50,880 bases of DNA, taken from the IMG/VR virus record IMGVR_UViG_3300044878_000188, positions 1-50,880 of that record. One strand, written 5' to 3'. The notes under the pieces were generated by a model. The model saw only the letters and a program-made list of their open reading frames with translations. It did no database searches and was not told the DNA's origin. Every line of letters starts with the position of its first letter. Position 1 is the first letter of the stretch. Source of the DNA: a virus. Taxonomy: Duplodnaviria > Caudoviricetes. Made by a program: the position numbers and the translations under genes. Below, in pieces: positions 2,284-21,566 of the stretch.

Positions 2284-2320
2284 TGGATTCACTCGACGCC
2301 GGCAGGCGGCGCCGACGGCG

Positions 2321-4871: not shown

Positions 4872-4875
4872 GGGA

Positions 4876-5115: not shown

Positions 5116-5133
5116 AAAATGCAGGGCGCACCA

Positions 5134-5604: not shown

Positions 5605-5645
5605 AGAAACCTTTCCAGGTGATAGGGGTAGACGCTGCCCAGGTC

Positions 5646-5673
5646 GTTATAACGGGCAAGTTCGGCATTTCAA
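5646..5673 (-). promoter_or_regulatory. Putative sigma70 promoter for the Gp49-family gene
   Basis: TTGAAA-N16-TATAAC on the minus strand, about 40 bp before the ATG. Confidence 0.45.
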
Positions 5674-5682
5674 GGGGAGGCC

Positions 5683-6746: not shown

Positions 6747-6994
6747 TGCTGGCCCCCTGAATCTCCCGGCACCTGGTCGCGCTTTCGAAGGCGAGCCCAG
6801 GCGAATTTAACGATCGGGTAAACCCAGCGACGGCCGACGCCGTCGAGCACCAGGAACACGGCATAAAACGCCATCAGGCGAATCGTCCATTCCTGATAGG
6901 TCAGGCCATAAATAAGCAGGCCGCCGCCCATGGGCGCGACCTTCGCCGCCTCGACCTTGGCCAGGCCGAGCAGGGAGATTTTTCCGTCATCCAC
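6743..6994 (-). CDS. Putative holin
   Basis: About 83 aa, hydrophobic segments, basic C-terminal tail, overlaps the endolysin start; GTG start inferred. Confidence 0.65.
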   Translation of the reverse strand: MDDGKISLLGLAKVEAAKVAPMGGGLLIYGLTYQEWTIRLMAFYAVFLVLDGVGRRWVYPIVKFAWARLRKRDQVPGDSGGQQ

Positions 6995-7014
6995 GAAAGG
7001 CGCACCCACAAAGT

Positions 7015-7036
7015 AAAAAGCCCGCACAGGGCGGGC
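7015..7036 (-). terminator. Intrinsic terminator upstream of the holin
   Basis: GCCCGC-loop-GCGGGC followed by T5 on the minus strand. Confidence 0.6.
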
Positions 7037-7072
7037 AAGGGAGGGAATAGGCCGAGGCCAGAAAGCAGGCGA

Positions 7073-7408
7073 TTACGACAGCAGCGCGTATGCCCGACCG
7101 AGGGTAATTCGAAGGTCGTACCCGTTTGCCAGGGCCGCCGCGCAGAAAGTGCGATTGCCTGGCGTGAACTCCAATTGACGCCGGTACGCCTCAACCTCGG
7201 ATCGCAGCCGATAGGCCCGCGAAAAACGGTAAAGCAGCCCATGAAGCCCGAACGTCCGCCAGAACTGGCGAACATGCACGCGCTCATGCTCGAGCAACCC
7301 CTGATCGCCTTTGAATTGCGGGCGAATGAATATGAATGGGCCGCGCGCAGCGCCCGCAAACGCTTTTCCAACCAGGCGATTGGTGTAAAACACAATAGAA
7401 GGAGGCAT
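7073..7408 (-). CDS. Small HExxH zincin-like protein
   Basis: 111 aa; LLEHERVHVRQ and a downstream EVEAY motif; conserved in the second copy. Confidence 0.7.
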   Translation of the reverse strand: MPPSIVFYTNRLVGKAFAGAARGPFIFIRPQFKGDQGLLEHERVHVRQFWRTFGLHGLLYRFSRAYRLRSEVEAYRRQLEFTPGNRTFCAAALANGYDLRITLGRAYALLS

Positions 7409-7532
7409 AGACAGAAGTCCTGCGAGTGCGGGAGGGCAGGCGAGCGCCTGCGCATTAAGAAGTGGCCGCGCATAGTGCGCGGCCGGGGCGGGCTTATTAA
7501 TTGCCGCCAAGATCAGCGAACGCCAGAAACGC

Positions 7533-7558
7533 AAAAGCCCGCTCAGGTGGCGGGCTTT
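7533..7558 (-). terminator. tR'-like terminator after the late promoter
   Basis: AAAGCCCGC-loop-GCGGGCTTTT; conserved at 47545-47570 with a different loop. Confidence 0.75.
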
Positions 7559-7581
7559 GTCGTATGTATCGCAGAGTGGAT

Positions 7582-7611
7582 AAAGTACCCTTTTTCGCGT
7601 TACTTTTGCAA
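7582..7611 (-). promoter_or_regulatory. pR'-like Q-dependent late promoter
   Basis: TTGCAA-N18-TACTTT, then a terminator; lies downstream of Q and upstream of lysis; conserved at 47594-47623. Confidence 0.65.
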
Positions 7612-7613
7612 GG

Positions 7614-7670
7614 GGTCTTTTTACCTTTTGCGCTTTTTTACTTTTGTACTTTTGGCCTTTTGGGCTTTTG
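7614..7670. repeat. 8-bp-period array adjoining the late promoter
   Basis: tacctttt gcgctttt ... tacttttg tacttttg gccttttg ggcttttg. Confidence 0.7.
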
Positions 7671-7869
7671 CCCAGTTCAAAATTCCAACCGGCTGCACGC
7701 CATCATCAACGACGCAGGCATCAGCCTTGCGCACAATGTTCACATATCCGGCCGGCTCTCTGCTGAGGTAGCAATCGTGCTCCTCTCGCAGGAATGGCAC
7801 CTCCTCGCCGACCAGGCCCGCGTACCACATCAATCTGTCACTACAGCCGGTAATTATTAGCCTGAGCAT
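7621..7869 (-). CDS. Hypothetical phage protein (absent from the second copy)
   Basis: 82 aa; ATG overlaps the stop of the upstream gene. Confidence 0.6.
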   Translation of the reverse strand: MLRLIITGCSDRLMWYAGLVGEEVPFLREEHDCYLSREPAGYVNIVRKADACVVDDGVQPVGILNWAKAQKAKSTKVKKRKR

Positions 7870-8189
7870 TATGACCTCACTGCACGAGCCCAGCCGGCTC
7901 GCGCTCCCTCGATAGTGGCGTAACCTTCGTCGACAAAGTCGCAGCAAGGGCAACGAGAGCCCCAGCGAGCCGACCGGATAAAGAACCGAGCAACCCCTTT
8001 CCCCTTGCACGTATGCGGCGGCAGATCTGGATCATTGACCAGGTGCCAGCTGGCGAGCGCCCTGACCTCGCTCGGATGCACCTCGCCCCTATTACTGCAG
8101 ATAGTGCAGACCCACAAAAATAGGCCAGAGCCAGGCTGGTGGCGTCGCTCAGGAGCTGCACCACAGTGCAGGCAGACAGGGGCGGTCAT
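7869..8189 (-). CDS. Double zinc-ribbon protein, Lar-like
   Basis: CLHCG..CTIC..A..SW, followed by a second C..CPCC..A..GW module. Confidence 0.6.
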   Translation of the reverse strand: MTAPVCLHCGAAPERRHQPGSGLFLWVCTICSNRGEVHPSEVRALASWHLVNDPDLPPHTCKGKGVARFFIRSARWGSRCPCCDFVDEGYATIEGARAGWARAVRS

Positions 8190-8191
8190 CG

Positions 8192-8605
8192 TCAGTAGCT
8201 CGACGAGGAGTCGGAGCTGCTCGAGCTGCTGCCCGAGTCATAGCTGCTTGAGCTTCCAGAGTCATAGCTCGAGCTGCTGCAGCCGTAGTCGGAACCACTC
8301 GAGCTCGAACGGCTCCAGGAGTCATCCGAGGCGGACGGCGAGCAATGACTGCGCGTCGGCTCGGGGCCGTGCCGATGCGACGAATAGGATTCGGCCTGGC
8401 TTACCTGGCTGAATGGCGATAGCGGATTGAGCGGGCTCAGCGGGTCATTCATTGGCGAATAGGCGTGGCTGCTCGAGCGCGAGCTGCTGTGCTGCAGTGC
8501 CGAGGCAGGCGCCACGCGATCGCGCAGGCGCTTGCGCTGAGCCTCGATCTCGGCCTCGCGGGCCAGGCGGCGGCGCTTGATTCCAAAAGGGTCGAATCCG
8601 AACAT
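8192..8605 (-). CDS. Ser-rich low-complexity phage protein
   Basis: PLSPLNPLSP motif and SSSYDSG repeats; orthologue at 48032-48400. Confidence 0.7.
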   Translation of the reverse strand: MFGFDPFGIKRRRLAREAEIEAQRKRLRDRVAPASALQHSSSRSSSHAYSPMNDPLSPLNPLSPFSQVSQAESYSSHRHGPEPTRSHCSPSASDDSWSRSSSSGSDYGCSSSSYDSGSSSSYDSGSSSSSSDSSSSY

Positions 8606-8608
8606 GAT

Positions 8609-8767
8609 CTATCCCTGCTTTTTCCCGACCAGGAGCACCGCCAACAGAAGGGCGACGATAACCAGGTCAGCACACATCGAAAGGAGCCGACTCGCCGAGT
8701 CGACCAGGACGACACCACCGGCCAGCCCGAAGGCTGCCCAGCGACGCAAAGGAGAGAGCAGACTCAA
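8609..8767 (-). CDS. Small membrane protein (52 aa, not in the ORF track)
   Basis: TTG start overlaps the terB stop; MSLLSPLRRWAAFGLAGGVVLVDSASRLLSMCADLVIVALLLAVLLVGKKQG. Confidence 0.6.
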   Translation of the reverse strand: MSLLSPLRRWAAFGLAGGVVLVDSASRLLSMCADLVIVALLLAVLLVGKKQG

Positions 8768-9201
8768 GCCGCGAGGCCGAAGTCTTTCAGGCGCAGGCCC
8801 AGCTCGACGGCGATCTCGTCGAGCACTTTCATTTCTTCGGGACTGATACTCCCGTCGCCCTCGGCCACGGTCAGCATGTTTACGAGCACCTCCTCGGCGT
8901 CGGCCGGGTTGTTCTTGATGTCGCGGATCTCGCGCATGATGTTCATGCGGCCCAGGCGGAAACCGGCCTGCAGCTGCTCAGTGAACAGATTTACGGTTTT
9001 GGTGATCTCGACGCCGAAGTGCTCCAGGGCCTTGTTAGCGCGGATCTGGATATCGATCTGCGCCGCTTCGTTCTTGCTGATCTCGCCGTCTGCCGCCGCA
9101 ACCAGCAGGCAACCGCCGACGATAGCCTGCATCAGGTCGCGGTTTTCCAGCTTCTTGATAGAGCGACCGGCGCCGAACAGCTTCTTTTTCAATCCGAACA
9201 T
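8764..9201 (-). CDS. terB: TerB-family protein
   Basis: Two ADG-x-I-x-x-x-E-type motifs (VAAADGEISKNE, VAEGDGSISPEE) and a C-terminal IA.ELGL. Confidence 0.85.
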   Translation of the reverse strand: MFGLKKKLFGAGRSIKKLENRDLMQAIVGGCLLVAAADGEISKNEAAQIDIQIRANKALEHFGVEITKTVNLFTEQLQAGFRLGRMNIMREIRDIKNNPADAEEVLVNMLTVAEGDGSISPEEMKVLDEIAVELGLRLKDFGLAA

Positions 9202-9230
9202 AGCGTTTCCCTCGTGGTTTTTTGGTTTGG

Positions 9231-10073
9231 TTAAAGCTTTTTCCAGAGCGTCTCGAGCGCCCCGGTATCGAGTTCGTCCAGGACGCTTTGCATGGCATCC
9301 CAGCGGGCGCGCCAGTGCTGGCGGTAGTTCACGTCGCTGACGCCCAGGAGCAGCGCCAAGTGCGGACCGTCGTAACGGCTCGCCCCGGCGTTCTTCAAAT
9401 GCTTGTGATGTTGCACAGCCAGGTGCGCCAGGCCCTTGGCGCGCTGCAGAGTCTTTCCCTGCATCTTGCCGAGCCGTGGCGCAACGCGAGCCCACAGCGT
9501 CACCACGCAGCCGGCCTCGTCATCCCACACCAGCGAATCGGCGTAGGCGTAACGAATCCAGCGGCTTTGCTCAGCGGCCAGCGTGGCCACCGTCCGCACC
9601 AGGTGCGCGTCTTCGAATGCCGTAGGACCCAACGGAATGGCGCTTTTTTTCTTTTTCCGCGTCTCGCTGCAGGTCACTCGAGTGGTATCCCTGGCCAGGC
9701 TGGCCACGTAGTCGAGGGGCAGCTTTTTTATTTCGTCGGCACCATCGAGCGGGCACTCGGCCAGGTCGTTGGCGCGATGGCGGGGGAACGCGTCGCGCAG
9801 ACGGGTCGTCTCGATTACACCAACGCCGTCAGGCTCGTCCGGGCGTTCCGTCTCGCGGTAATCAGTCGGCGCCAAGTAGGCGAACAGCAGCCATTCTCGA
9901 AGCCAAACCAGATCCTGCGCAATTGGCGCAGAACCTGATCGACCACGGCGGATCTGGACCCGCGCAGGTGGCACCGGGAGAATTTCGAGGTGCTGTAAAG
10001 CCCAGCTTTCGACGGACTCAACAGGTGGCGGCGTGTGGCGGATCTCAAGCGAGAAATTAGGGCGGGCCGTCAT
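9231..10073 (-). CDS. Q: Late antiterminator Q (phage 82/N15-like)
   Basis: WIRYAY motif, C-terminal HTH LALLLGVSDVNYRQHW; lies upstream of the pR'-like promoter and lysis genes. Confidence 0.75.
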   Translation of the reverse strand: MTARPNFSLEIRHTPPPVESVESWALQHLEILPVPPARVQIRRGRSGSAPIAQDLVWLREWLLFAYLAPTDYRETERPDEPDGVGVIETTRLRDAFPRHRANDLAECPLDGADEIKKLPLDYVASLARDTTRVTCSETRKKKKSAIPLGPTAFEDAHLVRTVATLAAEQSRWIRYAYADSLVWDDEAGCVVTLWARVAPRLGKMQGKTLQRAKGLAHLAVQHHKHLKNAGASRYDGPHLALLLGVSDVNYRQHWRARWDAMQSVLDELDTGALETLWKKL

Positions 10074-10075
10074 GC

Positions 10076-10291
10076 TCAACGTCTCCGCGCCAGAGTGATG
10101 TAGTCAACGCAGAACGAGCAGCGAGTCGCACGCGGCAGCCTGGCCAGGCGACCGGCCTCGATCGGGTTGCCGCAAGCCAGGCAAAAACGCTGCAGAACCA
10201 AACCGGCCTGCAGACACTCCTCAGCCATCAAGGCCCGAGCGACCGCGTCGTCTTGGCGCAGCTCGAGGCCGCTGGATACGTCATTGAACAC
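10076..10291 (-). CDS. TraR/DksA C4 zinc-finger protein
   Basis: CLACGNPIEAGRLARLPRATRCSFC. Confidence 0.85.
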   Translation of the reverse strand: MFNDVSSGLELRQDDAVARALMAEECLQAGLVLQRFCLACGNPIEAGRLARLPRATRCSFCVDYITLARRR

Positions 10292-10526
10292 TGGCGCCGC
10301 CTCCCTGACTTAGCAGGCTGGCCACGGCATAGCCGGCGCTCCGCTGATTGAACGACTGCACAAAGTAGGCGCAGGCGGCCGACTCGTTGAAATGGAGTTT
10401 ATGCACCTGGCTCTGCGCAGCAGCCCTCACCACGACCCGAGCCTCTGAGAGGCCGCGACGGCGAGGGAGCTCGAGCACCAGGACGGACTGACCACCAGCA
10501 ACGCGAAACAAACGAACCGACTTCAT
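10281..10526 (-). CDS. Hypothetical early protein
   Basis: Translationally coupled ORF; orthologue at 49475-49720. Confidence 0.7.
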   Translation of the reverse strand: MKSVRLFRVAGGQSVLVLELPRRRGLSEARVVVRAAAQSQVHKLHFNESAACAYFVQSFNQRSAGYAVASLLSQGGGASVQ

Positions 10527-10987
10527 TCGTCGGCCCCTTTGCGTGACGGTGGCGCGATCAATTGCGCGAAAGCGTGACTGTCACGCTTTGCAAGATCCGC
10601 CCCGGCGATCGCCAGAGCAGCGAGGACCGGCGCGAACAACGCGGCGAAAGCCTCAGGGTCTTTTTTGGCCAGAGCGGCCGAGCCATGCGCCAGCAGGGTC
10701 AGCGCCTCGGCCGACTCCTCGAATCCGCCAGCCTTACAGACGTCGGCCATGGCCTGCACGGTGCCGCCGTAGAGGGTCATTGCCGGCAGGTGCAAAGCCC
10801 CGGCTTTCAACTTGGCCTGAGCCTCGCGCAGGCGCTTTTTTTGCTGACGCTCGCGGTTCTGACGCTTGACCTTTTCGGCCTTTGTTTCACCAGGCGCAGC
10901 GGCAAAACGCTCGGCCAGCACCTCTTTATCGGTCGGAATTACGTCAGACTTCGAAATCGAGCTGACCAGGCGCAGGGCGGCACTCAT
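10523..10987 (-). CDS. Hypothetical early protein with a basic helix
   Basis: Translationally coupled ORF; orthologue at 49717-50181. Confidence 0.7.
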   Translation of the reverse strand: MSAALRLVSSISKSDVIPTDKEVLAERFAAAPGETKAEKVKRQNRERQQKKRLREAQAKLKAGALHLPAMTLYGGTVQAMADVCKAGGFEESAEALTLLAHGSAALAKKDPEAFAALFAPVLAALAIAGADLAKRDSHAFAQLIAPPSRKGADE

Positions 10988-11583
10988 AGCGGCTCGCCTT
11001 TCAGGTTGGCCAGCATCATCAGCGGGAGCGGGCGACCGGTGCCAGTCGACAGGGCCACCAGCTCGTTAAACATTGCCGAAATAGCTTCGGTGCCTTCGAT
11101 CAACATCCGGTCGACGTCTTCGGGGCTGTCGGTATGGTCGTATAAACCGTCATGCGCCGGGGCGCTGGCGGCCAGGAATTCGCCGATCGCCTGCGTCACC
11201 TCTCCCAGCTGCGCACGAGCAGCAGGGACACCAACCAGGCCAACAAGCGCAGGGATTCGCACGTCAAAGCAACCGGCCATAGCCAGGAGCTCAGAACGAG
11301 CAGAACGCTGGTAGTCCTCAGGCAGGCAAGAAAGCCAGGCCCATTTCCATTCGAGCGGGAAAGGTTGTGTAGAGTGAAAAATTCTCGTTACGCGCTGCGA
11401 CCAAGCTTTGCGGGTTTTCTGATACGTCTCGACGTCTACAGGTTCCTCGAGCTCGATCAGGCCAGCAGCAGAAAGCGCGACAGCCAGGCGCTCGCTGGCG
11501 AAACGTTCGAGCGACCACTCCGAATGGGCAAACCATCGGCTAGTCTGATCGACAATCACATCCCTTTCCGTCCGCGTGGCCAT
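10984..11583 (-). CDS. First early gene, CII/YdaT-like regulator (tentative)
   Basis: Divergent from cI; QRVTRIF...WLSCLP and HDG motifs recall CII/YdaT-type proteins; orthologue at 50178-50780. Confidence 0.5.
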   Translation of the reverse strand: MATRTERDVIVDQTSRWFAHSEWSLERFASERLAVALSAAGLIELEEPVDVETYQKTRKAWSQRVTRIFHSTQPFPLEWKWAWLSCLPEDYQRSARSELLAMAGCFDVRIPALVGLVGVPAARAQLGEVTQAIGEFLAASAPAHDGLYDHTDSPEDVDRMLIEGTEAISAMFNELVALSTGTGRPLPLMMLANLKGEPL

Positions 11584-11610
11584 AGCACCTTTCCCTGAAA
11601 TGTTGGTCGC

Positions 11611-11674
11611 ATGTAGCTCTACCTACATTCTCTATATATCGAGCAAGATTGCAACTAAATTTCTAAATAACGAG
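11611..11674. promoter_or_regulatory. OR-like operator region
   Basis: ATGTAG-N6-CTACAT palindrome (11611-28); 14-mers CTCTATATATCGAG (11630-43) and TTCTAAATAACGAG (11661-74). Confidence 0.6.
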
Positions 11675-11729
11675 TGGTGCCACTGTGCATCTAGAAGGGA
11701 CAATAATTGCGAAAAAAGGAGAGGGAACA

Positions 11730-12395
11730 ATGCAACGCGACTACACAATCGGCACCGCAATACGGATGCGGCGGCAAGCCCTTGGATGGTCGTTACAGCG
11801 CTTGATCGATGCCTCGCATATCGAGATGTCGACAGGGCACTTGGCGACCCTAGAAACGAAGAACGTAGCGCCTAGCGTCTACGTCGCCGACGCACTCGCG
11901 AAGGGGCTCGGAACAACGATCGACGTTTTGCTGAGAGAAGCGGCCGACCCTGTCGGATTCAGCGCCCCCAGCGAACACGCTCAACGCGTGCCTGTTATTC
12001 CGTGGAATATGGCAACTGAATGGGCTCGAAACCCTGATCCTAGAGGGCTTCCTGCCGGTACGGTGTGGGTGATGCCACCAGAGACGCCACCAGGCAAAAT
12101 TTTTGCTATGACCGTGCGTGATGAGCTGATGCAAGCCCCGAGCGGTATCAGCTTCCCCGTGGGTTACACCATCTTTGTAGACCCTGGCCGAAAGGCTGGG
12201 GCAAATGACTTTATAGTCGGACACCTCGGCGACGTAGCCGCGCCTGTATTCAAGAAATTGACCCTGGATGGCTCGGCGTACTACCTGCGCGCCTTGAATC
12301 CACAGTTTCCCGTACAGCAGGTGGGTGATACATTCGAGGTTATTGGTGTCGTCGTCGGGCTTAGCGCGACGTTCGACAAAGGGGGGATTCTATAA
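11730..12395 (+). CDS. cI: CI-like repressor (HTH plus degenerate S24 domain)
   Basis: N-terminal XRE HTH; C-terminal FKKL..LRALNPQFP..VIGVV; AGGAG SD before ATG 11730; catalytic Ser and Ala-Gly site absent. Confidence 0.88.
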   Translation: MQRDYTIGTAIRMRRQALGWSLQRLIDASHIEMSTGHLATLETKNVAPSVYVADALAKGLGTTIDVLLREAADPVGFSAPSEHAQRVPVIPWNMATEWARNPDPRGLPAGTVWVMPPETPPGKIFAMTVRDELMQAPSGISFPVGYTIFVDPGRKAGANDFIVGHLGDVAAPVFKKLTLDGSAYYLRALNPQFPVQQVGDTFEVIGVVVGLSATFDKGGIL

Positions 12396-12425
12396 AAAGA
12401 GCGCGCCAGTCTTCTAAATATAGAG
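12388..12425. promoter_or_regulatory. OL-like operators upstream of repA
   Basis: TTCTATAAAAAGAG (12388-401) and TTCTAAATATAGAG (12412-25) match the 14-mers on the other side of cI. Confidence 0.6.
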
Positions 12426-12650
12426 TGGACGACGTAAAGTAGCGGGGCTACCCGCTAACGAGCTATTTTTTTTCAAAGGCCAGAAAGGACAAAGGCCGGG
12501 GGCTTTAGCACCCCCGGCCTTCGCGATAGACGCACACCTTGCGGTGTTTACTGAGCAATCGGTTATCTGTTTTAGCGGGCAGGTAACACGACGTAACACT
12601 CGAACTTTGCCGTTCAGTGCTCAGTTTAGACCCGTGTAAACGGACGTCAA

Positions 12651-12715
12651 TCGTTTGTACTTTTTCACCTTTGTACTTTTGACCAAAGGGACAAAATGAC
12701 AAACGTACAAAAGAG
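12651..12715. repeat. 8-bp-period array overlapping the repA start
   Basis: tacttttt cacctttg tacttttg, then inverted caaaggga caaaatga caaacgta caaaagag. Confidence 0.75.
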
Positions 12716-15700
12716 CACCGGGCTAGGAGCCTTTTACGCGGAGCGTTTCAACTCCGATCCGTACAGCCTGCTTGACCATTTCGAGGCAGATATCTCTGCC
12801 GCAGCGGCTGACGCATCCGTCAAATGGTCGTCGGTCAGCGATCAAGTGCGCCTCAACGGCAAGCGCCTCAAAACCTACTCAAAAGCGAAAATTGTCGCCA
12901 CCGACGACCGCTATACCGGCAAGGTCATGGTATGGGGCGAGCTCAAGCGACTTGAAGGCAAGGCCGCCACGGCCACGCGGGCCGAGCTCGCTGCAATCGA
13001 ATACCCTTACCTGACGTTCAGCAACAACGTTACCGGCGCCTCGACCTGGTCTGGTTTAGAGGCGCTGCTCGACCTGTACAAAAATGAGCGCGGCGTCGAG
13101 TCCAGCGAACGCGATCGCGAGCGGTTAGCGAAGCAGGAAGCCAAACGCCTCGAGCGGGCCGCCCGTCAAGAAGCCGAGGAGGCCGCCGAGCGCGACCGCG
13201 AGGCGCGTATTCAAGGCGAATTTTCTGCCTATGCGCACGCCTGGTTGACCGGCGAGCGAGGCGAATTCGAATACGAAGGCAAGCGGAAAGGCGGCGACAC
13301 CTTTATCGCCCGCAGCTTTGTCGAAGTCCTCGGGGCTGAGGACGGCAGCGCCCCTTACCTGCAGAAAAAGCAAATTGGCGCGATCGCGTCACGCTTCAAA
13401 ATGAAACGTATGCGTGACAGTCACGGTGTTTTCACTGGCGTTCCTTTGCTCAATATCCACGGCCAATTTCTTGGCCTGCAGCGCCTGTACGACGACAAAA
13501 AGCTGCAGGGTACGGGCGTCAAGATGGACGGCGCCCACTGCATTTTCGGCGACATCGAAACCGCCGAGGTGCGGATCGCTGTCGAGGGTTTCGCTACCGG
13601 CGCCAGCGTCTACCTGGCCGAGCTCGAGGCCGGCCGCAATGTCGCGGTAATCGTCGCGTTCAACGTCGACAACCTGGTCAAGGTGCTGCGCATCTATGAC
13701 AAGTTCTACCCCGGCTGGCGCTTTCTGAATGCCGCAGACAACGACCAATGGAAAGACGCCGGCAATGCTGGCCTGCTCGCTGCGCTTGAGATTCATCGCG
13801 ACTTGCAGCACCTAGCCACCGTGCCGACCTTTGAATCGATGAGCCTGGCCGAAGTGTCCGAGGCCCGCGCCACCGGCAAGGGACCGACCGACTGGAACGA
13901 CTACCACTGTCGCTACGGTTTGAAGTCGACCGCCAAAGCGCTGCACGCCCGCGACAGCATGTACCGCGCCGAAAAGGACTGGTTTAGCTACTGCCTGCAG
14001 CGCGTCTCCCACAGCGGCAGCAAAACAAAAATCGAGAAGGCGGCGAAAATGGCCGTCAACGCAGGGTTGCTCCTGGTGCCGATCAAATACAGCGTCGACG
14101 AGGTTGTCAGCCGCGTGATCGAGAGCATGCACCCAGCCACCCCCGACGCCGTTCGCGCCAAAGCTCGCAGCCTGGCCCGCTGGATTGCCCGGCAAAAGGT
14201 CAACCAGGCCCAGCAACTCCGGGGCTTTTCGGTGTCGGCGCTGGCCAAACCAAATGTTCAATACATGAAAATCGAGGGCGTGCGCGCTGAGCACGGCGGT
14301 ATCGAGCTGCCGGCACACATGGCCGACCTGGTCGAAAGCCTCGAGGGGATCGTCATTGTTCGGGCGCCGATGGGTTCAGGTAAAACCGAGAAGCTGATCG
14401 CTCCACTGATGAAGGCCTCGACCAAAGCGGCCTACATCGCGCATCGAATCTCGCTCCTAGACGACGCCGCGGCTCGCCTCAATGTCGAGCATTACCAGCA
14501 GGTTTACGCCCGCCAAATGCCGTGGGTTTCGCACTTAGCTTGCTGCGTCAACAGCCTGACCGCGCCGAAGTTCTACAACGCCGAGGAGCGCAGCTGGTTT
14601 ACCACCCTCGAGACACTCTGCATTGACGAGGCCTCTCAGGTCATCCGCCACACCACGACCGGACCGGTCGAGGGCCGCGTCAAGGTTATGGATGCACTGA
14701 TCGAGGCCGTCTCGGCCGCCAAGCGTGTTTTGCTTTGCGATGCCGACGCTAACGACGGCGTGATCGAGTTCTGCGAGCTCGCCCGCCCTGGCCAGGTCAT
14801 CACCGTTCTGGACGTCGTCGGGACGACTGACCATATCCGCGTTGACCATGGCGACGATGAAACCGTGTGGCAGTTGGCGATCGACCAGATCTGCGCCGGC
14901 CGCCGCGTCCTGGTCGCGAATGACTCTGCAGAGTCGGCCAAGAAAATGGCCGCCCTGATCGAGGCCAAGGTCGACGCCGAGGAAATCGGCCCGGTTCGCA
15001 TGCTCCTGGTTCACGCCGACAGTAAGGCAGATCCTGACGTCGAGGCCTTTTTGTGCAACCCCAACGAGGAGGCCACCAAATACGACGTCCTGATCTACTC
15101 GCCCGCGATCAGCTCTGGCGTGTCCATGACTACGCCGCATTTCGAGCGTCATTTCGGCCTGTTCAGTGGTAACACCGTTGGCCCTTCTGACGCGGTCCAG
15201 ATGCTGCGCCGCGATCGTACGGCACGGCACTACATTGTCGGCATTGGCCACACCTCAGGCCAACGCGAAACCGACCCTGAAACCCTCTATCGCGGCCTGC
15301 TGGTCGCCGAGAATCTGGTCTGCCAGTTCGAGGAAACGCCAGACGAGTATCGGCTCACCCGCAAAAAAACCGCCTTCGACAAGGTCTGGCTTTCCGCTGT
15401 CACCTCTGAAAACAAGGCGCGCAACAGCTTCGCCAATAACCTTTTGCTGATGCTTTACGGCGAGGGCTACCAGGTGCAGCGCTTGGCGATCGACGCCCAG
15501 GACGCCGAGGAACTGACCGACCTTTCTCGGAAAAACCGCAAGTTCGCAGGCGAGCTCGTGTTCTCTAAGCGTATGGACCTGATCGACAGCGTCGAGACAC
15601 CGACCGAGGAAGCTTTTCTCAAGCTCAACCGTCAGGAGGTCCGCAGCGAGGCGGAAAGCGCCCAAGTCGACCGCTACCACATTGAGCACCAGCTCGGCGT

Positions 15701-16541
15701 CGACGAGATCCGCGCCGACGACGTTTCGTTCTACGACGATCGCGGTATCGCCAAGGTTGTGGCGCTCGAGCTCCTGCAGGCCGACGAGGCGCAGGCAAAG
15801 GCCTACGACATGGCTCAGCGCAAAGCACGCGTAGTTCTCACTCAGCATCGTTTTAAAGCCCCTGCACGGGCCTTGCTGGCGCAGATCTTTGAAACCCTCA
15901 CTCTCGATCGCGAAACAGGCGAGGGCGAGTTCAGCAGCCTGCAGTGCCGTCAGGCGCTGGATCTAATCAAGCGCGACCAGGACACACTGGACCTTTACAA
16001 CGCGTTGAAGCTCGGGCGCCACGTTGCGAGCCTTACCGCAAAAGCCTGCGCGACTACGGTCGTTAAATCGATCCTCGAGCGCCTCGGCCAGGTCACGAAA
16101 AAACGTAAGACGAACGGACAGGTTCTTTTTGAGCTCAACAGGGATAATTGGACGTTCGTAATGGGCTACGTAGAGCGCCGTGCAGCCAAAAACACCCACT
16201 CCCTGACCACCCATGACCACGAATCGACGCATCAGCCCCTGCTGGCCCCTGAGGAGCTCGCAGCGGCCCCGTCTAATCTGGTCGCGGCGGAAAGTGACAC
16301 TTTGCAGGTAGGGGATGTAAGCACAGTTGAAAAGTATCCCTTGGACGTAGCAGAACGCGCATTTGCCTTTGCTTCGCTTTGCGACCTCCCAGCCGGTACG
16401 CCAGTTGTGCAGCTGGTGCGGGATCTGGAACCGGGCATGGTGCAGCGGATGGCCAATCCTGGGGAGGAGGTCAGCAGCTTGAAATGGATGCTTGGCTATG
16501 CGGCGGCCCTATTGAAGGCTCCGGCGAGGTATACTGTTTAA
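12696..16541 (+). CDS. repA: RepA primase-helicase replication protein (N15-like)
   Basis: 1281 aa; TOPRIM motifs EGFATG, AADND and DWND; helicase motifs APMGSGKT and CIDEASQ. Confidence 0.9.
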   Translation: MTNVQKSTGLGAFYAERFNSDPYSLLDHFEADISAAAADASVKWSSVSDQVRLNGKRLKTYSKAKIVATDDRYTGKVMVWGELKRLEGKAATATRAELAAIEYPYLTFSNNVTGASTWSGLEALLDLYKNERGVESSERDRERLAKQEAKRLERAARQEAEEAAERDREARIQGEFSAYAHAWLTGERGEFEYEGKRKGGDTFIARSFVEVLGAEDGSAPYLQKKQIGAIASRFKMKRMRDSHGVFTGVPLLNIHGQFLGLQRLYDDKKLQGTGVKMDGAHCIFGDIETAEVRIAVEGFATGASVYLAELEAGRNVAVIVAFNVDNLVKVLRIYDKFYPGWRFLNAADNDQWKDAGNAGLLAALEIHRDLQHLATVPTFESMSLAEVSEARATGKGPTDWNDYHCRYGLKSTAKALHARDSMYRAEKDWFSYCLQRVSHSGSKTKIEKAAKMAVNAGLLLVPIKYSVDEVVSRVIESMHPATPDAVRAKARSLARWIARQKVNQAQQLRGFSVSALAKPNVQYMKIEGVRAEHGGIELPAHMADLVESLEGIVIVRAPMGSGKTEKLIAPLMKASTKAAYIAHRISLLDDAAARLNVEHYQQVYARQMPWVSHLACCVNSLTAPKFYNAEERSWFTTLETLCIDEASQVIRHTTTGPVEGRVKVMDALIEAVSAAKRVLLCDADANDGVIEFCELARPGQVITVLDVVGTTDHIRVDHGDDETVWQLAIDQICAGRRVLVANDSAESAKKMAALIEAKVDAEEIGPVRMLLVHADSKADPDVEAFLCNPNEEATKYDVLIYSPAISSGVSMTTPHFERHFGLFSGNTVGPSDAVQMLRRDRTARHYIVGIGHTSGQRETDPETLYRGLLVAENLVCQFEETPDEYRLTRKKTAFDKVWLSAVTSENKARNSFANNLLLMLYGEGYQVQRLAIDAQDAEELTDLSRKNRKFAGELVFSKRMDLIDSVETPTEEAFLKLNRQEVRSEAESAQVDRYHIEHQLGVDEIRADDVSFYDDRGIAKVVALELLQADEAQAKAYDMAQRKARVVLTQHRFKAPARALLAQIFETLTLDRETGEGEFSSLQCRQALDLIKRDQDTLDLYNALKLGRHVASLTAKACATTVVKSILERLGQVTKKRKTNGQVLFELNRDNWTFVMGYVERRAAKNTHSLTTHDHESTHQPLLAPEELAAAPSNLVAAESDTLQVGDVSTVEKYPLDVAERAFAFASLCDLPAGTPVVQLVRDLEPGMVQRMANPGEEVSSLKWMLGYAAALLKAPARYTV

Positions 16542-16551
16542 ATAGACAGTG
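16532..16551. promoter_or_regulatory. LexA (SOS) box
   Basis: TACTGTTTAAATAGACAGTG fits CTGT-N8-ACAG with an AT-rich spacer; overlaps a TATACT hexamer and the repA stop. Confidence 0.8.
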
Positions 16552-16594
16552 GTGGCAAAACAATATCTATAGGACAAAAGGGGAGGGATTCACC

Positions 16595-16867
16595 TTGCAG
16601 TGCCAGGAAAAAATGGACAGAGCGTCCGCCAAACTCAGCCGCGCAAAATCAGCGCTAAGCATGGCCACGAAGGCCGGAATGGAAGCAACAAGAGGGGAGC
16701 TGCTCGACATGATTGCGACAGCGCTCGAACAGATAGAGGAGGCCGAGGCGGAGCTCAGAGAGGGGGAAAATCGAAATGTACTGCCGGGGCGCTTGGCCCC
16801 GGCCGGTGATTTGACGCCGTGTCAGGCGCTGGTTTTGCCACTAGCGGCGGCGAACAAAGCCCTTTGA
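16595..16867 (+). CDS. Small helical protein, candidate SOS-induced antirepressor
   Basis: GGGAGG SD before TTG 16595 (alternative ATG 16613); directly downstream of the LexA box. Confidence 0.55.
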   Translation: MQCQEKMDRASAKLSRAKSALSMATKAGMEATRGELLDMIATALEQIEEAEAELREGENRNVLPGRLAPAGDLTPCQALVLPLAAANKAL

Positions 16868-18501
16868 GCCTCCTCCTTGCTGTCACCTTCGGCGCTGGCA
16901 ATCTCGACGCCATTTAGCTTGGCGACAGCAACAAAACGACCGTCCGAGATCTCACGTACAGAGATCCTCGGCCGAGCATTCGCCACCTCTGCCGGCACTT
17001 CCGGCGCCACTGCCTCAAGCGGGCGGTTGGCGGTGGCCAGGGCCTCGCTGGCCAGCTCCAGATACTCTTTAATCAGTGGCCGATAACTTCCCACATTTAA
17101 CGAGATCGCTTTCTGCGAGATCTTCACGTCAGGCGAGGCTTTGACCGTCTCTTTCACCCAGCGGTGAATTTTCCCCATCGCTTCGCGCCCGGCAATTTTC
17201 TCGTGATCGTCCAGGGCGATCAGCGCCTCGAGGCGGCTGGCGTATTTGCTGGCCGGCGCCTCTGATGCCACTGCCGTATAGCTGATCTTGAACGCCTTGT
17301 AACTCTCCTGCGTGTCCATGTCCTCGTGCCCGAGCATTTCGCGCCAGAACACCGACTCGTTTACGGTTTTCCAGCGCTGATCTCGGCTGAAATACAGCTC
17401 GAACACTACCCGCGCCCACAGCGCCCGGCTGTCTTTGAACACGCGCGCTTCGCTGCCGAGCACTCGCTTTGCGACCGTGTTCAATGTCTTCGCCACCCGG
17501 CGATTTACTTCCGTGTTGTCCAGGTGCTGCAGCTCGAGCACCTCAGGCATGGCGCGCATTTTGGCGAACGCCTCGAGCACCAGGTCGGCTTTTATCAGGG
17601 TGTAGATCCGGTAGCTTTCGCCGTAGTCGACACCGCCACGGCGCTTGGCCTGGCCGCTGAATTCGAGCTCGAACTCGCCGACCTTCTCGAATCGGGCCAT
17701 TTTGAGAATCTCGATCTCGCGTCGGCCGGTCGCCAGTGACAGGCCGAGCGCCAGCGACGAAAAGTTCTGTTTTGGGGCGCCGTCGTGGCCGATTTCAGCC
17801 TCGGTCAGCAGCTTATGGATCGTCTCAATCAGCCAGTGGTAATTGACCTCGACAGTGTTCGTCGCGCGAACCTCGAGCGTTTCGACCGCATCGGCGGCCA
17901 GCTGCGCCGCTGTCGCTGCCGGCAACGTCAGGTGACGCATGATTTCGTGATCGAGTTTCATCGAGCGAAACGCCTCATACGCTGAGTCGTCGCGGTCTTG
18001 GCGAGCGCGCAGGAGAAGGTCGCGATGCGCCATCCGCAGCGCCGTAATGTCGACCAGGTCGGCCATGTCGAGCAGCTGCTCGGCGTAGCGCGGATGATGC
18101 TTGGCCAGGCTGTGCAGGGCCTGCTCGATCGAGTGGTGCCGCCAGTTCTGAGCCGTGACGGCCTTGCGGATGGTCGTCAGGTAGCGGCGATAGCTCGACG
18201 CCTTGAGCTTGTCGTCTTCCTTGCGGCGTTTGTCCTCGTACAGCTTTACCTTGAGGCTGTCAGCCAGGCGGCCGATCCGTTTCGTTTTCTCGCTGCGACT
18301 GAGGCTATCGTCGCCGTCAATTTTGACGACGTCAGCGATCAGCTTATCGATCAGCGGCTGCAGCTCGATTTTCTGACGCGTGGCGCCGCCATAGTTGCCG
18401 AAGCTGACGCGCTCCTGCTGATCGATGGCCGCGACCTCGTTCAACGCCTGAGCCGCGTCGAGCACCTTGTCTGCACCTTTAACGCCCTTCTTTGCTGCCA
18501 T
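16822..18501 (-). CDS. telN: Protelomerase (telomere resolvase)
   Basis: TGRR..E, FSGQAK.R, FKDSR and LGH...TQ.SY catalytic motifs; GAGGTG SD; adjacent to the telRL palindrome. Confidence 0.93.
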   Translation of the reverse strand: MAAKKGVKGADKVLDAAQALNEVAAIDQQERVSFGNYGGATRQKIELQPLIDKLIADVVKIDGDDSLSRSEKTKRIGRLADSLKVKLYEDKRRKEDDKLKASSYRRYLTTIRKAVTAQNWRHHSIEQALHSLAKHHPRYAEQLLDMADLVDITALRMAHRDLLLRARQDRDDSAYEAFRSMKLDHEIMRHLTLPAATAAQLAADAVETLEVRATNTVEVNYHWLIETIHKLLTEAEIGHDGAPKQNFSSLALGLSLATGRREIEILKMARFEKVGEFELEFSGQAKRRGGVDYGESYRIYTLIKADLVLEAFAKMRAMPEVLELQHLDNTEVNRRVAKTLNTVAKRVLGSEARVFKDSRALWARVVFELYFSRDQRWKTVNESVFWREMLGHEDMDTQESYKAFKISYTAVASEAPASKYASRLEALIALDDHEKIAGREAMGKIHRWVKETVKASPDVKISQKAISLNVGSYRPLIKEYLELASEALATANRPLEAVAPEVPAEVANARPRISVREISDGRFVAVAKLNGVEIASAEGDSKEEAQRALFAAASGKTSA

Positions 18502-18521
18502 GATTTCCACCTCGCAAAAGT

Positions 18522-18680
18522 CATACACCCTTAACCGCTGCAGCAACTATAGACCCGAGCAACATACACCGCAAGCCCTGAAACCAAACTATCGCCACCC
18601 GCCAACATATACACCCAAACCCAGCCACAACATACACCCGCAAACCAATCCCCAATAACATACACCCAAAGCCCAATCCC
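18522..18680 (+). repeat. AACATACACCC-like direct repeats left of the telomere
   Basis: Copies near 18522, 18561, 18604, 18629 and 18657; inverted copies at about 18798-18860. Confidence 0.7.
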
Positions 18681-18708
18681 TAACATTATTTTGATAGGGG
18701 ATCGGTTC

Positions 18709-18772
18709 ATGGGTGTATACACCTATTCCCCATTCTATACGTATAGAATGGGGAATCGGTGTATACACCCAT
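18709..18772. repeat. telRL protelomerase target palindrome
   Basis: 64-bp inverted repeat centred on 18740/18741 (CTATAC|GTATAG) with one mismatch (18724/18757); upstream of telN. Confidence 0.92.
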
Positions 18773-18932
18773 AACCCTGATTTAATGTAGGGGCGTTGGT
18801 GTATGTTGGTATTGGTTTATGGATGTATTGGGGAATGGGTTGTGGGTGTATTGCATACACTCATTGCCCTATGTCAATAAGGTATAAATAAGAATGTCTG
18901 ACGAGTGACGCCTTAGCGTGAAAAGCAAGCTA

Positions 18933-19121
18933 GTCAGGACGACATGTCAGCAAGAGGCAGAAAGGAAGGCATGCACCATAAGGACGGTAAGCAGTCCTTA
19001 CCTCTCAGCCAGGACGGGAAAGCCACGCAACACAAGGGCTACAGGCGCAGCGAGAAAGGACGGGCAAAAGCGCAGAGACAGAGTCTCTGTAAAGGATGGC
19101 GCTTCGCGCCCGTTTGTTTTG
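18933..19121 (+). ncRNA. Candidate Csr/Rsm-type GGA-repeat sRNA
   Basis: Six AGGA(C/A/T)G motifs, several in short stem-loops; ends in a GGCGC-TTC-GCGCC hairpin and a T-rich run. Confidence 0.45.
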
Positions 19122-19169
19122 TACCTTTGCCCTTATGGCCTATTGTACAAAGGTACATTTGTACGTATA
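19114..19169. repeat. 8-bp-period array upstream of parA (candidate parS/operator)
   Basis: ttgttttg tacctttg cccttatg gcctattg tacaaagg tacatttg tacgtata. Confidence 0.7.
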
Positions 19170-19201
19170 TTTAGGCCTCACCCAATCGCGAGGCCTTCAA
19201 A

Positions 19202-19849
19202 ATGGCTGCAAGAATCTGGACCATACAGAACCAAAAAGGCGGCACAACAAAGACGACGACCGCGACGAACGTCGCCTGCTGCCTGGCCGACAAGCACGGT
19301 AAAAGCGTGCTTCTGGTCGACCTCGACGGCCGCCAAGGCTCGGCGACTGACTGGGCAACCTCCCGTGCTGACGACGCGACATTGATCCCCTGCGTCATCA
19401 TGCGGGAAACGCTAAAGCGCGACTTGCCGCGAATCTCGAGCGGTTACGACTACGTGATCATTGACGGGATACCGCAGATCAGCACCCTGACGTCGGACGC
19501 GGTCAAGGCCTCGCACCTGGTCATCATTCCGGTACAGCCGAGCCAGTACGATATATGGGCAACCGCCGACATGGTTACGCTGGTAAAGGACCGTCAGGAG
19601 GTCACAGGCGGCACACCTAAGGCCGTGCTAATGATCGCCAGAGCCATCGCCGGGACCATTCTCGAGCGCGACGCACAGCAGGCCCTGCTCAACTACGAGC
19701 TACCGCTCACCGAAACCCAAACGCACCAGCGCGTCGCTTATGGGAAAGGCATTGCACAAGGGAACAGCGTAATGGACCTGGCACCGGGCGATGATGCGCG
19801 ACTCGAGATCGAGGCCCTGACGGCAGAACTCCTGGAGTTTGATAAATGA
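19202..19849 (+). CDS. parA: ParA/ParF-type partition ATPase (short, type Ib)
   Basis: Deviant Walker A NQKGGTTKTT, LLVDLD, YVIID and PVQPS motifs. Confidence 0.92.
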   Translation: MAARIWTIQNQKGGTTKTTTATNVACCLADKHGKSVLLVDLDGRQGSATDWATSRADDATLIPCVIMRETLKRDLPRISSGYDYVIIDGIPQISTLTSDAVKASHLVIIPVQPSQYDIWATADMVTLVKDRQEVTGGTPKAVLMIARAIAGTILERDAQQALLNYELPLTETQTHQRVAYGKGIAQGNSVMDLAPGDDARLEIEALTAELLEFDK

Positions 19850-20157
19850 CCAGCACAAAGCTCAGCACCGAGCGCCCAAGCCGCGCCGCAGCAGCTCAAA
19901 TCGAACCGCACGTCGAGAAGGCGCGCCGGGCAGTAGTGACCGATTCGGCCGAGGAGAAGCAGCTCAAGGCGATTGTGCCGGTCAAGTACCACAGGGGCAC
20001 CAACGACATCAAAAGCATGTCGGCCGACAACGTCCCGGTTAAATATCTGATCATTGAAGCGCTCGACGATCTGTTCAAAAAGTACGAGCAAGGAAAGGGG
20101 CATTACAACGTCGAAGATCAGGCAGAGCTTAAGCGCCGCCTGGAATCATTGAAGTGA
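19846..20157 (+). CDS. Small partition partner (ParG/RHH-like centromere-binding protein)
   Basis: Coupled to parA; flexible N-terminus, then a beta-helix-helix pattern ending IIEALDDLFKKY. Confidence 0.65.
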   Translation: MTSTKLSTERPSRAAAAQIEPHVEKARRAVVTDSAEEKQLKAIVPVKYHRGTNDIKSMSADNVPVKYLIIEALDDLFKKYEQGKGHYNVEDQAELKRRLESLK

Positions 20158-20222
20158 AAAAAGGACGCCTGGTAGCGGTTGCACCCGCCACCAGGCAAGA
20201 CAGATAACCTAGGGGGTTAACC

Positions 20223-20378
20223 ATGTCCAAAATCGACTATACCACAGCGCGGAGCCTCTCCCTGCGCGAAGCTGCAGACCCAGCCAACCGCGCCAAGGTG
20301 CGCGCCTACCTCGAGCAAGAATGCTGCCTGATCGCCTGGCACGGGTTCCTGCGCATGATCGGGGAGGCGGCCAAATGA
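20223..20378 (+). CDS. 51-aa hypothetical protein (not in the ORF track)
   Basis: AGGGGG SD; MSKIDYTTARSLSLREAADP...GEAAK; stop overlaps the next ATG. Confidence 0.6.
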   Translation: MSKIDYTTARSLSLREAADPANRAKVRAYLEQECCLIAWHGFLRMIGEAAK

Positions 20379-20527
20379 AACGCAGCGACGACCCTACCGG
20401 GCTGCAACTCCTCTTTTCTGGCGCAGTGGCGATCGCCATCGCACTGCACGTCATAGGCATGTTTATTTACCGTGTTTACACCCAGCGCACGGACGCCAAA
20501 ACCATCGACCAGGACGAGCAAGCATGA
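20375..20527 (+). CDS. 50-aa single-TM protein
   Basis: GGAGG SD, ATGA overlaps at both ends, one hydrophobic helix. Confidence 0.6.
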   Translation: MKRSDDPTGLQLLFSGAVAIAIALHVIGMFIYRVYTQRTDAKTIDQDEQA

Positions 20528-20880
20528 CGACCCTTAAAATCGGCGGGCTCCTGCTCGCCCTCGCGATTGCTGGCGCTTTCCAGCCTGCAGCCGCCCGTAA
20601 CTGCGACGTCGACGACGACGGACGAACTGACGCAACATGCGGCGGGCCAGACCGGGATCTAGACAACGACGGACGCACCGACGCGACATTCGGCGGCCCC
20701 GATCGCGATCTCGACAACGACGGACGCACCGACGCGCAATTCCGAGGCAGCGATCGAGATCTCGACGGCGACGGGCGCACCGACGCAACATTCGGCGGCC
20801 CCGATCGGGATCTCGATAACGACGGCCGCACCGACGCAGAGTTCGACGGCCCCGATCGCGACGTCAAAAAGAGGTGGTAG
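20524..20880 (+). CDS. Secreted acidic repeat protein (5 x 17 aa, DxDxDG motif)
   Basis: Sec signal peptide ending AAA; repeats of DLDNDGRTDATFGGPDR. Confidence 0.8.
   Translation: MTTLKIGGLLLALAIAGAFQPAAARNCDVDDDGRTDATCGGPDRDLDNDGRTDATFGGPDRDLDNDGRTDAQFRGSDRDLDGDGRTDATFGGPDRDLDNDGRTDAEFDGPDRDVKKRW
20605..20859 (+). repeat. 51-bp coding tandem repeat, 5 copies
   Basis: In-frame repeats with synonymous variation. Confidence 0.85.
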
Positions 20881-20882
20881 CA

Positions 20883-21116
20883 ATGAGCAACTGGCAGCTT
20901 TTCCGACGCTCACTGGCCAACCATCCCGGCCTAACGCTTGGCTACGGCTGGCCGCTACTGGTCGCTGCCGCAATGCTCATGCGACACGACGGCCCGCCGC
21001 CCCTGATCTTCTGGCTAGCCATTTACCCTGTCGTCTGCACGCTCCCATGGGCGCCCATCCTTTGGACTGCCTGGACATTACGCACTCAATACGCCGAAAA
21101 GGATAACGACCAATGA
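20883..21116 (+). CDS. Small two-TM membrane protein
   Basis: GAGGT SD, two hydrophobic segments, coupled to the next gene. Confidence 0.65.
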   Translation: MSNWQLFRRSLANHPGLTLGYGWPLLVAAAMLMRHDGPPPLIFWLAIYPVVCTLPWAPILWTAWTLRTQYAEKDNDQ

Positions 21117-21517
21117 CCGATATCAAGCGCTACACCGTTAATCACGAATGGCACGACCACACCATCACCCTTGAAGTCGACCACTCGCGCCTGACCGCCG
21201 AGAACGCCGCGCTTTACTTGACTTTCTGGACCGGCGGCGACGAGTTCGCCGAAGACGAGGGCGGCGACCCAGTGCGCGGCCTGGTGCGGTACTTCGGAGC
21301 CGTTGCCATACGCCAAATACTGGCCGAATACGGCTCAGCCTTCGGCGAAAACAACGCAGAAGCAGCACGCATTTGGTCCGCACAGATCCGCAATACGGAA
21401 GGTTTCGGCGGCGAGGATGGATCGCCGTTTGGCAGCATCGGTATCAGGATATTGGCCGCCGACATTGAAGCGCCAGGCTTCGACGACGTCGTACTTAAAG
21501 AATTGTCGGCCGCATAG
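21113..21517 (+). CDS. Conserved phage protein (DUF2528-like)
   Basis: KRYTV..W...I.LEVDH, FW.G, EG and GIRI pattern recalled from the family. Confidence 0.65.
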   Translation: MTDIKRYTVNHEWHDHTITLEVDHSRLTAENAALYLTFWTGGDEFAEDEGGDPVRGLVRYFGAVAIRQILAEYGSAFGENNAEAARIWSAQIRNTEGFGGEDGSPFGSIGIRILAADIEAPGFDDVVLKELSAA

Positions 21518-21540
21518 GCGCCCGATGTAGCCAGCCCCAC

Positions 21541-21566
21541 AAGCCCGCCCACTCGGCGGGCTTTTT
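21541..21566 (+). terminator. Intrinsic terminator of the accessory operon
   Basis: AAGCCCGCC-loop-GGCGGGC followed by T5. Confidence 0.8.

Follow-up and report, generated by a model that had tools for sequence, protein, structure and literature searches.

The 50,880-base window analysed here, which is the whole of the IMG/VR virus record IMGVR_UViG_3300044878_000188 (G+C 60.7%), is a hapunavirus-like (phiHAP-1/VP882-type) linear-plasmid prophage, and carries between the replication gene repA and the protelomerase gene telN a small open reading frame (ORF) of 90 amino acids (aa), which we consider, with a probability of roughly 60%, to encode a LexA-repressed antirepressor of the prophage repressor cI. 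This gene would place the logic of the CB/AntC system of phage N15 in the genomic slot occupied by Qtip in phage VP882. A cI predicted not to cleave itself, joined with a LexA-controlled small gene that stands in the repA-telN slot without a phage transcription factor (TF), makes a probable SOS antirepressor wired directly to host LexA, as had been proposed in a sequence-only reading of the window. That proposal now gains comparative support from across the clade, with the inactivation of cI still a prediction. The support comes from the residue changes in cI, from a box that is conserved in relatives, from a perfect, clade-wide association of this junction with a degenerate S24 domain and from purifying selection on the ORF. 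The features concerned are the following.

11730-12395, plus strand: cI repressor, 221 aa, helix-turn-helix (HTH) and degenerate Peptidase_S24 domains (Pfam; phrog_4; lambda cI C-terminal domain structures, E 5e-10)
12003-12023, plus strand: WNMATEW, aligned with the Ala-Gly cleavage site of VP882 cI (WVQAGLW); Ala-Thr in the window
12126-12128, plus strand: Leu133, codon CTG, a position held by the catalytic Ser in both lambda and VP882 cI
12252-12254, plus strand: Lys175, first Lys of FKKL (12249-12260), aligned with the general-base Lys of lambda and VP882 cI; retained
12696-16541, plus strand: repA, primase/helicase-type replication protein (similarity to phiHAP-1 and VP882 RepA)
16530-16535, plus strand: TATACT, putative -10-like hexamer that overlaps the box's left arm, without a properly spaced -35 in the window phage
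16532-16551, no strand assigned: LexA (SOS) box TACTGTTTAAATAGACAGTG, predicted; conserved in relatives
16580-16587, plus strand: Shine-Dalgarno (SD) sequence GGGGAGGG, 7 nucleotides (nt) upstream of TTG
16595-16867, plus strand: small ORF, 90 aa, TTG start, candidate LexA-repressed antirepressor
16822-18546, minus strand: telN protelomerase, convergent with the small ORF (PF16684 E 8.9e-30, PF20818, PF22853)

The S24 domain of cI

The cI protein, read from ATG 11730, combines HTH_31/HTH_3 with a PF00717 Peptidase_S24 domain (E 7.7e-11, 42.2 bits, cut-off 23.3), and its residues 112-210 align to the lambda cI C-terminal domain structures 2ho0, 1kca, 1f39 and 3bdn (phmmer, E 5e-10 to 4e-9), a lambda-cI-like fold which is presumably retained for dimerisation. 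In the lambda cI alignment VRDELM of the window stands opposite VEGNSM and FKKL opposite FKKL, while VP882 cI, in the same register, sets VRGDSM, FKQL and WVQAGLW opposite VRDELM, FKKL and WNMATEW. Both alignments bear out the description given in the sequence-only reading, namely a CTG codon in place of that of the catalytic Ser, WNMATEW at the cleavage site and a retained Lys in FKKL. In addition, Asp131 stands where the G-x-S-M motif has Gly, so that among the hallmarks of a self-cleaving S24 repressor the domain itself and the Lys are present in the window cI and the Ser of G-x-S-M and an Ala-Gly or Cys-Gly bond are missing. In VP882 cI, which is cleaved at Ala-Gly, S130A and K172A have been used as catalytic-site mutants, according to the available text of the preprint (10.1101/2019.12.16.877910). 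With Ser replaced by Leu, Gly replaced by Asp and no Ala-Gly bond, RecA* should be unable to make cI cut itself, and to judge from its sequence the window cI is a pseudo-protease.

Decay of the nucleophile extends to the family. In a set of 46 cI proteins that share 47% identity or more with the window cI, the Ser position is occupied by Ser and Gly in 14 sequences each, by Leu in 12, Ala in three, Thr in two and Gln in one, with the neighbouring Asp and Met and the general-base Lys kept throughout (46/46 each). The dipeptide at the cleavage site is Ala-Ala in 33, Ala-Ser in seven, Ala-Thr in two, Ala-Gly in two and Val-Ser and Ala-Val in one each. The position has changed repeatedly, as its codons show: one lineage has TCG for Ser and a second has AGC, both GGT and GGC are used for Gly, and Leu appears as CTG or as CTC.

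The SOS box and the small gene at the repA-telN junction

The sequence-only reading had placed a near-consensus SOS box at 16532-51, ahead of an ORF of 84-90 aa with a strong SD, and these coordinates are right. The box encloses the repA stop codon (TAA, 16539-41), lies 44 nt upstream of the SD-led small ORF and 4.2 kb from cI, and is the sole CTGT-N8-ACAG as well as the sole TACTG-N10-CAG in the window. Its arms agree perfectly with the 20-mer E. coli SOS consensus, from which it departs at four positions in all, and a scan for this consensus with up to 3 mismatches returned 0 matches for that reason. All small-ORF families retain a -10-like (T/G/A)ATACT across the left arm; terminator-like sites between 16300 and 17000 number two, against 1.1 expected.

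In the genome of a relative's host, the P. frederiksbergensis genome carrying locus L018, CTGTATATAATCCCAG and CTGTATAAAAAGACAG precede lexA and CTGGCTACTTATACAG precedes recA, so that the phage box is of the same CTG(T)-N-CAG type as the SOS boxes of this relative's host. Strict TACTGT-N8-ACAG has nine matches in this genome against four in the control, one of the nine being the prophage itself, and the neighbours of these matches that were examined include no classical SOS genes. We regard LexA control of the small gene as highly probable. Also in a relative's host, a second LexA-like gene (L066, contig 43 of genome G001) lies behind AGTACAAATGTACT, a palindrome unlike the CTGT-N8-ACAG type, which indicates what may be a second SOS-type regulon in this Pseudomonas genome.

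The small ORF can be read from TTG 16595 with 90 aa or from an internal ATG at 16613 with 84 aa, and its final 46 nt overlap the 3' end of telN convergently. The TTG, 7 nt after GGAGGG, is found in 17/17 rows (16 contigs and the window), and hardly any variation is seen in the first 45 residues, QCQEK ahead of the internal Met included; the TTG start is therefore favoured over the ATG. Non-synonymous relative to synonymous polymorphism (pN/pS) amounts to 0.33 in frame, compared with 1.61 and 1.30 in the shifted frames (codons 2-62, 16 distinct sequences), and on this pattern of substitution the ORF can be taken as a real gene. It had been called an unannotated orphan, and neither word holds, as a search of 5.8 billion proteins retrieved 36 homologues at 54-95% identity, two of them already entered in Pseudomonas records under the name 'hypothetical protein', and two sister families exist. 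AlphaFold2 on the family alignment predicts a helical hairpin (helices 2-26 and 33-55) with a disordered tail at a mean predicted local distance difference test score (pLDDT) of 67.5.

The family is narrow, as a profile search of 1.84 billion representatives gave 4 clusters only at E <= 0.001; 50,697 phage records held no match to the small ORF, and the best score in the ESM Atlas, 0.75, was under the lead threshold. Related families can be recognised by hhalign. The window's family A is connected with family B (ORFs of L025-L034 and L044) at E 1.1e-10 and family B with family C (small ORFs of L046-L054) at E 3.6e-10, and the similarity of family A to family D of the phiHAP-1 group is marginal (P 0.03-0.04), above 40/40 column-shuffled controls.

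Related loci and known antirepressor systems

A close set of 17 loci encodes the small-ORF family, 14 of them viral, of which two are one contig read both ways, and three genomic, on 16 contigs together. At the repA-telN junction all 17 carry box, SD and TTG-started ORF, with CTG-N10-CAG 51-65 nt upstream of the TTG (17/17) and in the form TACTGT...CAG in 15/17. In an alignment of 10 sequences TACTGT, CAG and the SD GGGAGGG are invariant; the spacer and the stretch between box and SD vary, with insertions and deletions. The two readings of the one contig (L013 and L014) cover overlapping ranges of the IMG/VR record in opposite orientation (10711-21548 reversed, 10141-20978). This contig looks like an inverted duplication, perhaps the product of an assembly that read through the hairpin telomere, and its box region holds two overlapping CTGT...ACAG-like elements.

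A wider set of 34 loci was found through TelN (46-81% identical), and the stop-to-stop gap between repA and telN is 229-330 bp in 30 of them, six of which are contigs of the close set, and 1.06-1.18 kb in three, with one locus lacking the repA side. In all 30 short-gap loci, which include phiHAP-1 and of which L045 was resolved by eye, TACTGT-N8-(A/C)CAG is found at the repA stop codon, ahead of an SD and an ORF of 84-100 aa. Throughout the 411 kb of these loci, 39 of the 48 occurrences of TACTG-N10-CAG are at the junction, a count in which the loci are related and palindromes are counted twice. A cI is visible in 30 loci of the wider set, 28 with a short and two with a long gap. G-x-S-M is missing from all 28 short-gap cI proteins, which have Asp at the motif Gly and Thr (17), Ser (six), Gly (three) or Leu (two) at the Ser position; five of the six Ser-bearing proteins, those of the phiHAP-1 group, have Arg for Lys. 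Both long-gap cI proteins, of L050 and the VP882-like L053, have V.GDSM and FKQL. In Valp1 and HY01, two telomere phages that are more distant and have canonical motifs, the box is missing from 17-kb loci around telN. L050, with its canonical GDSM cI and a gap of 1.14 kb, holds CTGTCTGCATAAACAG at 6900-6915 of the reverse-complemented locus, 56 nt past the repA stop and within a minus-strand ORF of 54 aa, with no plus-strand ORF behind it, an exception to the general pattern.

Three phages allow a direct comparison. N15 is likewise a linear-plasmid prophage, and its CB repressor consists of an HTH and a PF00717 domain without catalytic Ser or Lys. It is described as non-proteolytic in the available part of PMC10432266 and, as stated in those of PMC4488713 and PMC3121763, is countered by antC, with induction through an antirepressor of the SOS regulon. 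As in the window, a box, CTGTGTTTATATACAG, is followed in N15 by a small TTG-started ORF of 79 aa (L055 17565-17832, record 39564-39831), which has no annotation in the RefSeq record, is flanked by genes 47 and 48 and is presumably antC. Unlike in the window, however, box and ORF are located in the right arm at about 39.6 kb, genes 30-36 fill the N15 repA-telN interval, and the TelN proteins are only about 31% identical.

VP882 shares the gene order of the window, with a cII-like gene, cI (38% identical), repA and a small ORF convergent with telN. Qtip and the window protein are both of about 80-90 aa, the latter predicted to be helical, and Qtip has been reported to bind the N-terminal domain of VP882 cI, to block DNA binding and to inactivate similar non-cognate repressors too (available text of preprint 10.1101/2019.12.16.877910). 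VP882 has a TF gene, a gap of 1.06 kb, no LexA box and a self-cleaving cI (GDSM, FKQL, Ala-Gly), whereas in the window a gap of about 280 bp is filled by the ORF, with a LexA box, without a TF gene and beside a predicted dead catalytic site. Modules of a TF and a small ORF (TF-smORF), such as VqmAPhi-Qtip of VP882 and TF72-smORF72, are defined by an SOS-independent input, and the screen for them left out non-proteolytic repressors, according to the accessible portion of Silpe et al. (2023, PMC10432266); in 12 of the 19 supplementary files of that paper neither Halomonas nor Pseudomonas nor the accessions NC_010342 and EU399241 occur. The window resembles these modules in its small ORF between repA and telN; it has no divergent TF gene and no Qtip homologue, and instead of an SOS-independent input beside a self-cleaving cI it shows a LexA box and a degenerate cI.

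In phiHAP-1 the same slot holds, in the same orientation, the 95-aa ORF35 (hypothetical protein), with TACTGTATACTTGAACAGTA 45 nt upstream and GGGGGG as SD. A plausible -35, TTGACC, lies 16 nt from AATACT, a good -35 being readable only in the phiHAP-1 group. Its cI (ORF37, L001 1380-2084) keeps Ser (LDDDSM), has Arg for Lys (FRQL) and no Ala-Gly, and scores under the Pfam S24 cut-off (19.1 vs 23.3 bits). According to the available part of a 2025 mBio survey (PMC12802170), which mentions neither ORF35 nor its box, HAP-1-like phages encode no TF-smORF module. Tum of coliphage 186 and GfoA/GftA of the Gifsy phages are small LexA-controlled proteins which bind non-cleavable repressors, and some of these proteins act on non-cognate repressors (PMC3121763, as far as its text was available). 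These belong to unrelated phages and repressor families and are likened here by description only, and their repressors are not described as S24 pseudo-proteases in that same portion of PMC3121763. With such LexA-controlled antirepressor systems the window shares a repressor that, by sequence only, is without nucleophile or Ala-Gly, and a predicted LexA operator before a small gene lying apart from the immunity region. The comparison with the N15 79-aa ORF revealed no relatedness to a known member, and the known members are not one homologous family.

Proposed mechanism, alternatives and genomic surroundings

We infer the following course for LexA binding, SOS induction of the ORF, cI as the target and the mode of action. 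In the lysogen, host LexA on the 16532-51 box, over the repA stop and TATACT, would silence the 90-aa gene. Upon DNA damage LexA would be cleaved and the small, predicted helical-hairpin protein be produced, which would bind cI, take it off its operators and release the divergent cII/Q lytic operon. The SOS input would thus reach the phage in trans, cI being, as predicted, incapable of self-cleavage.

A number of observations weigh against this scheme. Ser and Lys are kept together in 14/46 cI relatives and Thr stands at the Ser position in 2/46, and residual cleavage may occur in some of these proteins. The small ORF matches no Pfam or PHROG family, and Foldseek on its AlphaFold2 model returned 0 BFVD matches at E <= 0.001. 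Homology to the N15 79-aa ORF was rejected, no similarity being found (hhalign included), as was homology to Qtip, with P 0.035-0.15 for the single sequence and 0.11-0.75 for a 5-row profile of Qtip and four homologues, no better than shuffles. A scan of 16300-17000 yielded no sigma-70 consensus promoter, and TTGAAG of the window lies just 12 nt from TATACT. In the phiHAP-1 group a near-identical small protein is paired with cI proteins only 49% (N-terminal) and 37% (C-terminal) identical to one another, which means that either a conserved surface is recognised or the target is not cI; a conserved surface on the N-terminal domain could reconcile the divergence with an antirepressor step. Distances among small ORFs track those of the cI N-terminal part, the cI C-terminal part and RepA alike (mirror-tree, r 0.69-0.77, 13 rows, RepA represented by its first and last 400 residues). 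Finally, CTGT-N8-ACAG and TACTG-N10-CAG are expected by chance 0.50 and 0.59 times in the window and occurred at least once in 41/100 and 43/100 shuffles, so that the box on its own, in this window, is not beyond chance, and it is judged to be more than chance because it is conserved in relatives.

Some of these points would be accommodated if the LexA-controlled product acted on a target other than cI, such as RecA/LexA (DinI- or GIL01 gp7-like modulation), TelN/RepA (switching replication from the plasmid to the lytic mode) or host division, with cI inactivated by another, unseen route. The same small protein accompanies very different cI proteins in the phiHAP-1 group and is unlike any known antirepressor compared, its gene sits, with an overlap, between the replication and telomere genes, and the distances do not single out cI. 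Yet the junction with box and ORF goes together with a degenerate cI in 28/28 short-gap and 0/2 long-gap loci, as expected if the ORF replaces self-cleavage, Qtip acts from the same slot on the conserved N-terminal domain of a homologous cI and on non-cognate repressors as well (preprint, as above), and no other induction device was found among the window proteins scanned, in which antirepressor-annotated or ImmA-like genes were sought (PHROGs for 6 of 8 and for all 48, Pfam for 13); we therefore consider another target rather unlikely. It is improbable that the box governs transcription itself, as a roadblock to repA read-through or as a damage-induced antisense promoter into telN, and that the ORF product is secondary. 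The overlap of the box with the repA stop codon, the 46-nt convergent overlap of the 3' ends of ORF and telN and the lack of a clear -35 would suit such a role, but purifying selection is seen in the ORF's own frame only, the strong SD and the TTG start (17/17 rows) are conserved, and the N-terminal 45 residues are near invariant, with recognisable sister families.

RecA-dependent cleavage of cI, by way of a different nucleophile or of a Ser-bearing relative acting in trans, with the ORF as an accessory SOS gene, would agree with the conservation of Lys175 and most of the S24 core and with the relatives that carry Ser (14/46) or Thr (2/46). This is very improbable in view of the Leu, Asp and Ala-Thr that the window cI has for nucleophile, motif Gly and cleavage site, of a drift between Ser, Gly, Leu, Ala, Thr and Gln in close relatives that is unexpected for a working nucleophile, and of S130 being treated as catalytic in VP882 cI in the available preprint text. 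A mere chance juxtaposition of box and ORF, suggested by the one CTGT-N8-ACAG per 50.9 kb that arises in about four of ten shuffles, is next to negligible, given that all short-gap relatives, which span four diverged ORF families, have the box conserved at this junction.

The repA-telN junction of hapunavirus-like linear-plasmid phages might be a swappable cassette for the induction input that co-evolves with the repressor protease, a tentative idea to which we give less than even credence. Most lineages, of Pseudomonas and Halomonas type (30/30 short-gap loci), would route SOS through a LexA-boxed antirepressor and have let the S24 site decay, and VP882-type lineages would have kept a live protease and swapped the LexA-boxed gene for TF-smORF modules responsive to other cues. 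The small protein, near-identical while cI diverges to 37-49% identity, may even be a broad-spectrum antirepressor that co-induces related co-resident prophages. The distribution suggests that HAP-1-like phages and others with non-proteolytic repressors use the TF-smORF slot for a LexA-wired small gene and that, in all loci examined, LexA wiring goes with a cI that has lost its protease. The regulatory logic is already known and extends the N15, 186 and Gifsy paradigm rather than adding a new principle; what appears to be new is the small-protein family, the use of the TF-smORF slot and the clade-wide link to decay of the cI protease. Searches outside subscription journals, the original phiHAP-1 genome paper being among those behind subscription, found no paper describing a LexA box at the repA-telN junction. 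If correct, the proposal would explain the DNA-damage response of a fairly large group of linear-plasmid prophages in Pseudomonas and Halomonas, and would provide a natural series of S24 pseudo-proteases and a single locus at which the swapping of regulatory inputs is open to study.

The closest isolated relatives of the window by DNA are Halomonas phage phiHAP-1 and Vibrio phage VP882 (about 66% identity across parts of repA-telN), with which the gene order near the small ORF agrees: Q-like, cII-like, cI, repA, small ORF, telN, parA. The neighbouring genes are the following.

9231-10079, minus strand: Q-like antiterminator gene, in the lytic operon that cI should repress (phrog_304, E 4.7e-38)
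10984-11583, minus strand: cII-like activator gene, leading the operon divergent from cI (phrog_4834, E 3.5e-50)
19202-19849, plus strand: parA

The host of the prophage is probably a Pseudomonas. Nearly all homologues of cI and the small ORF that bear an organism name come from this genus (P. frederiksbergensis, P. syringae, P. aeruginosa, Pseudomonas sp.), on contigs of usually 36-39 kb; two have other labels, those of an Afipia and a Specibacter metagenome bin. Among the sequencing runs, the probable source sample is the only one to contain over half of the sampled words, the values for RNA-labelled runs being 0.07-0.12.

The stretch 39926-50880 duplicates 246-11681 at 74-92% identity, including portal, head-tail joining, terminase, lysis, Q-like, DksA-like and cII-like genes, so that the record corresponds to about 1.28 unit lengths with two variants joined. 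The second copy stops 100 nt beyond its cII-like gene, which places a second cI, the would-be target of the cross-induction suggested in the sequence-only reading, and a second repA-telN junction outside the record, and could be due to a mixed-strain assembly or to two related elements. A possible moron at 8764-9495 (minus strand), with the lysis genes on one side and the Q-like gene on the other, encodes a TerB-like 'tellurite resistance' protein (phrog_632, E 7.8e-53). A DksA-like zinc-finger protein (10076-10291, minus strand; phrog_54, E 6e-7) belongs to the early lytic operon near the Q-like gene, and its gene occurs again at 49270-49566. Between telN and parA, overlapping ORFs with repetitive peptide translations at 18467-18860 suggest that the DNA is repetitive and may hold the telomere-resolution site or repeats of a centromere-like kind.

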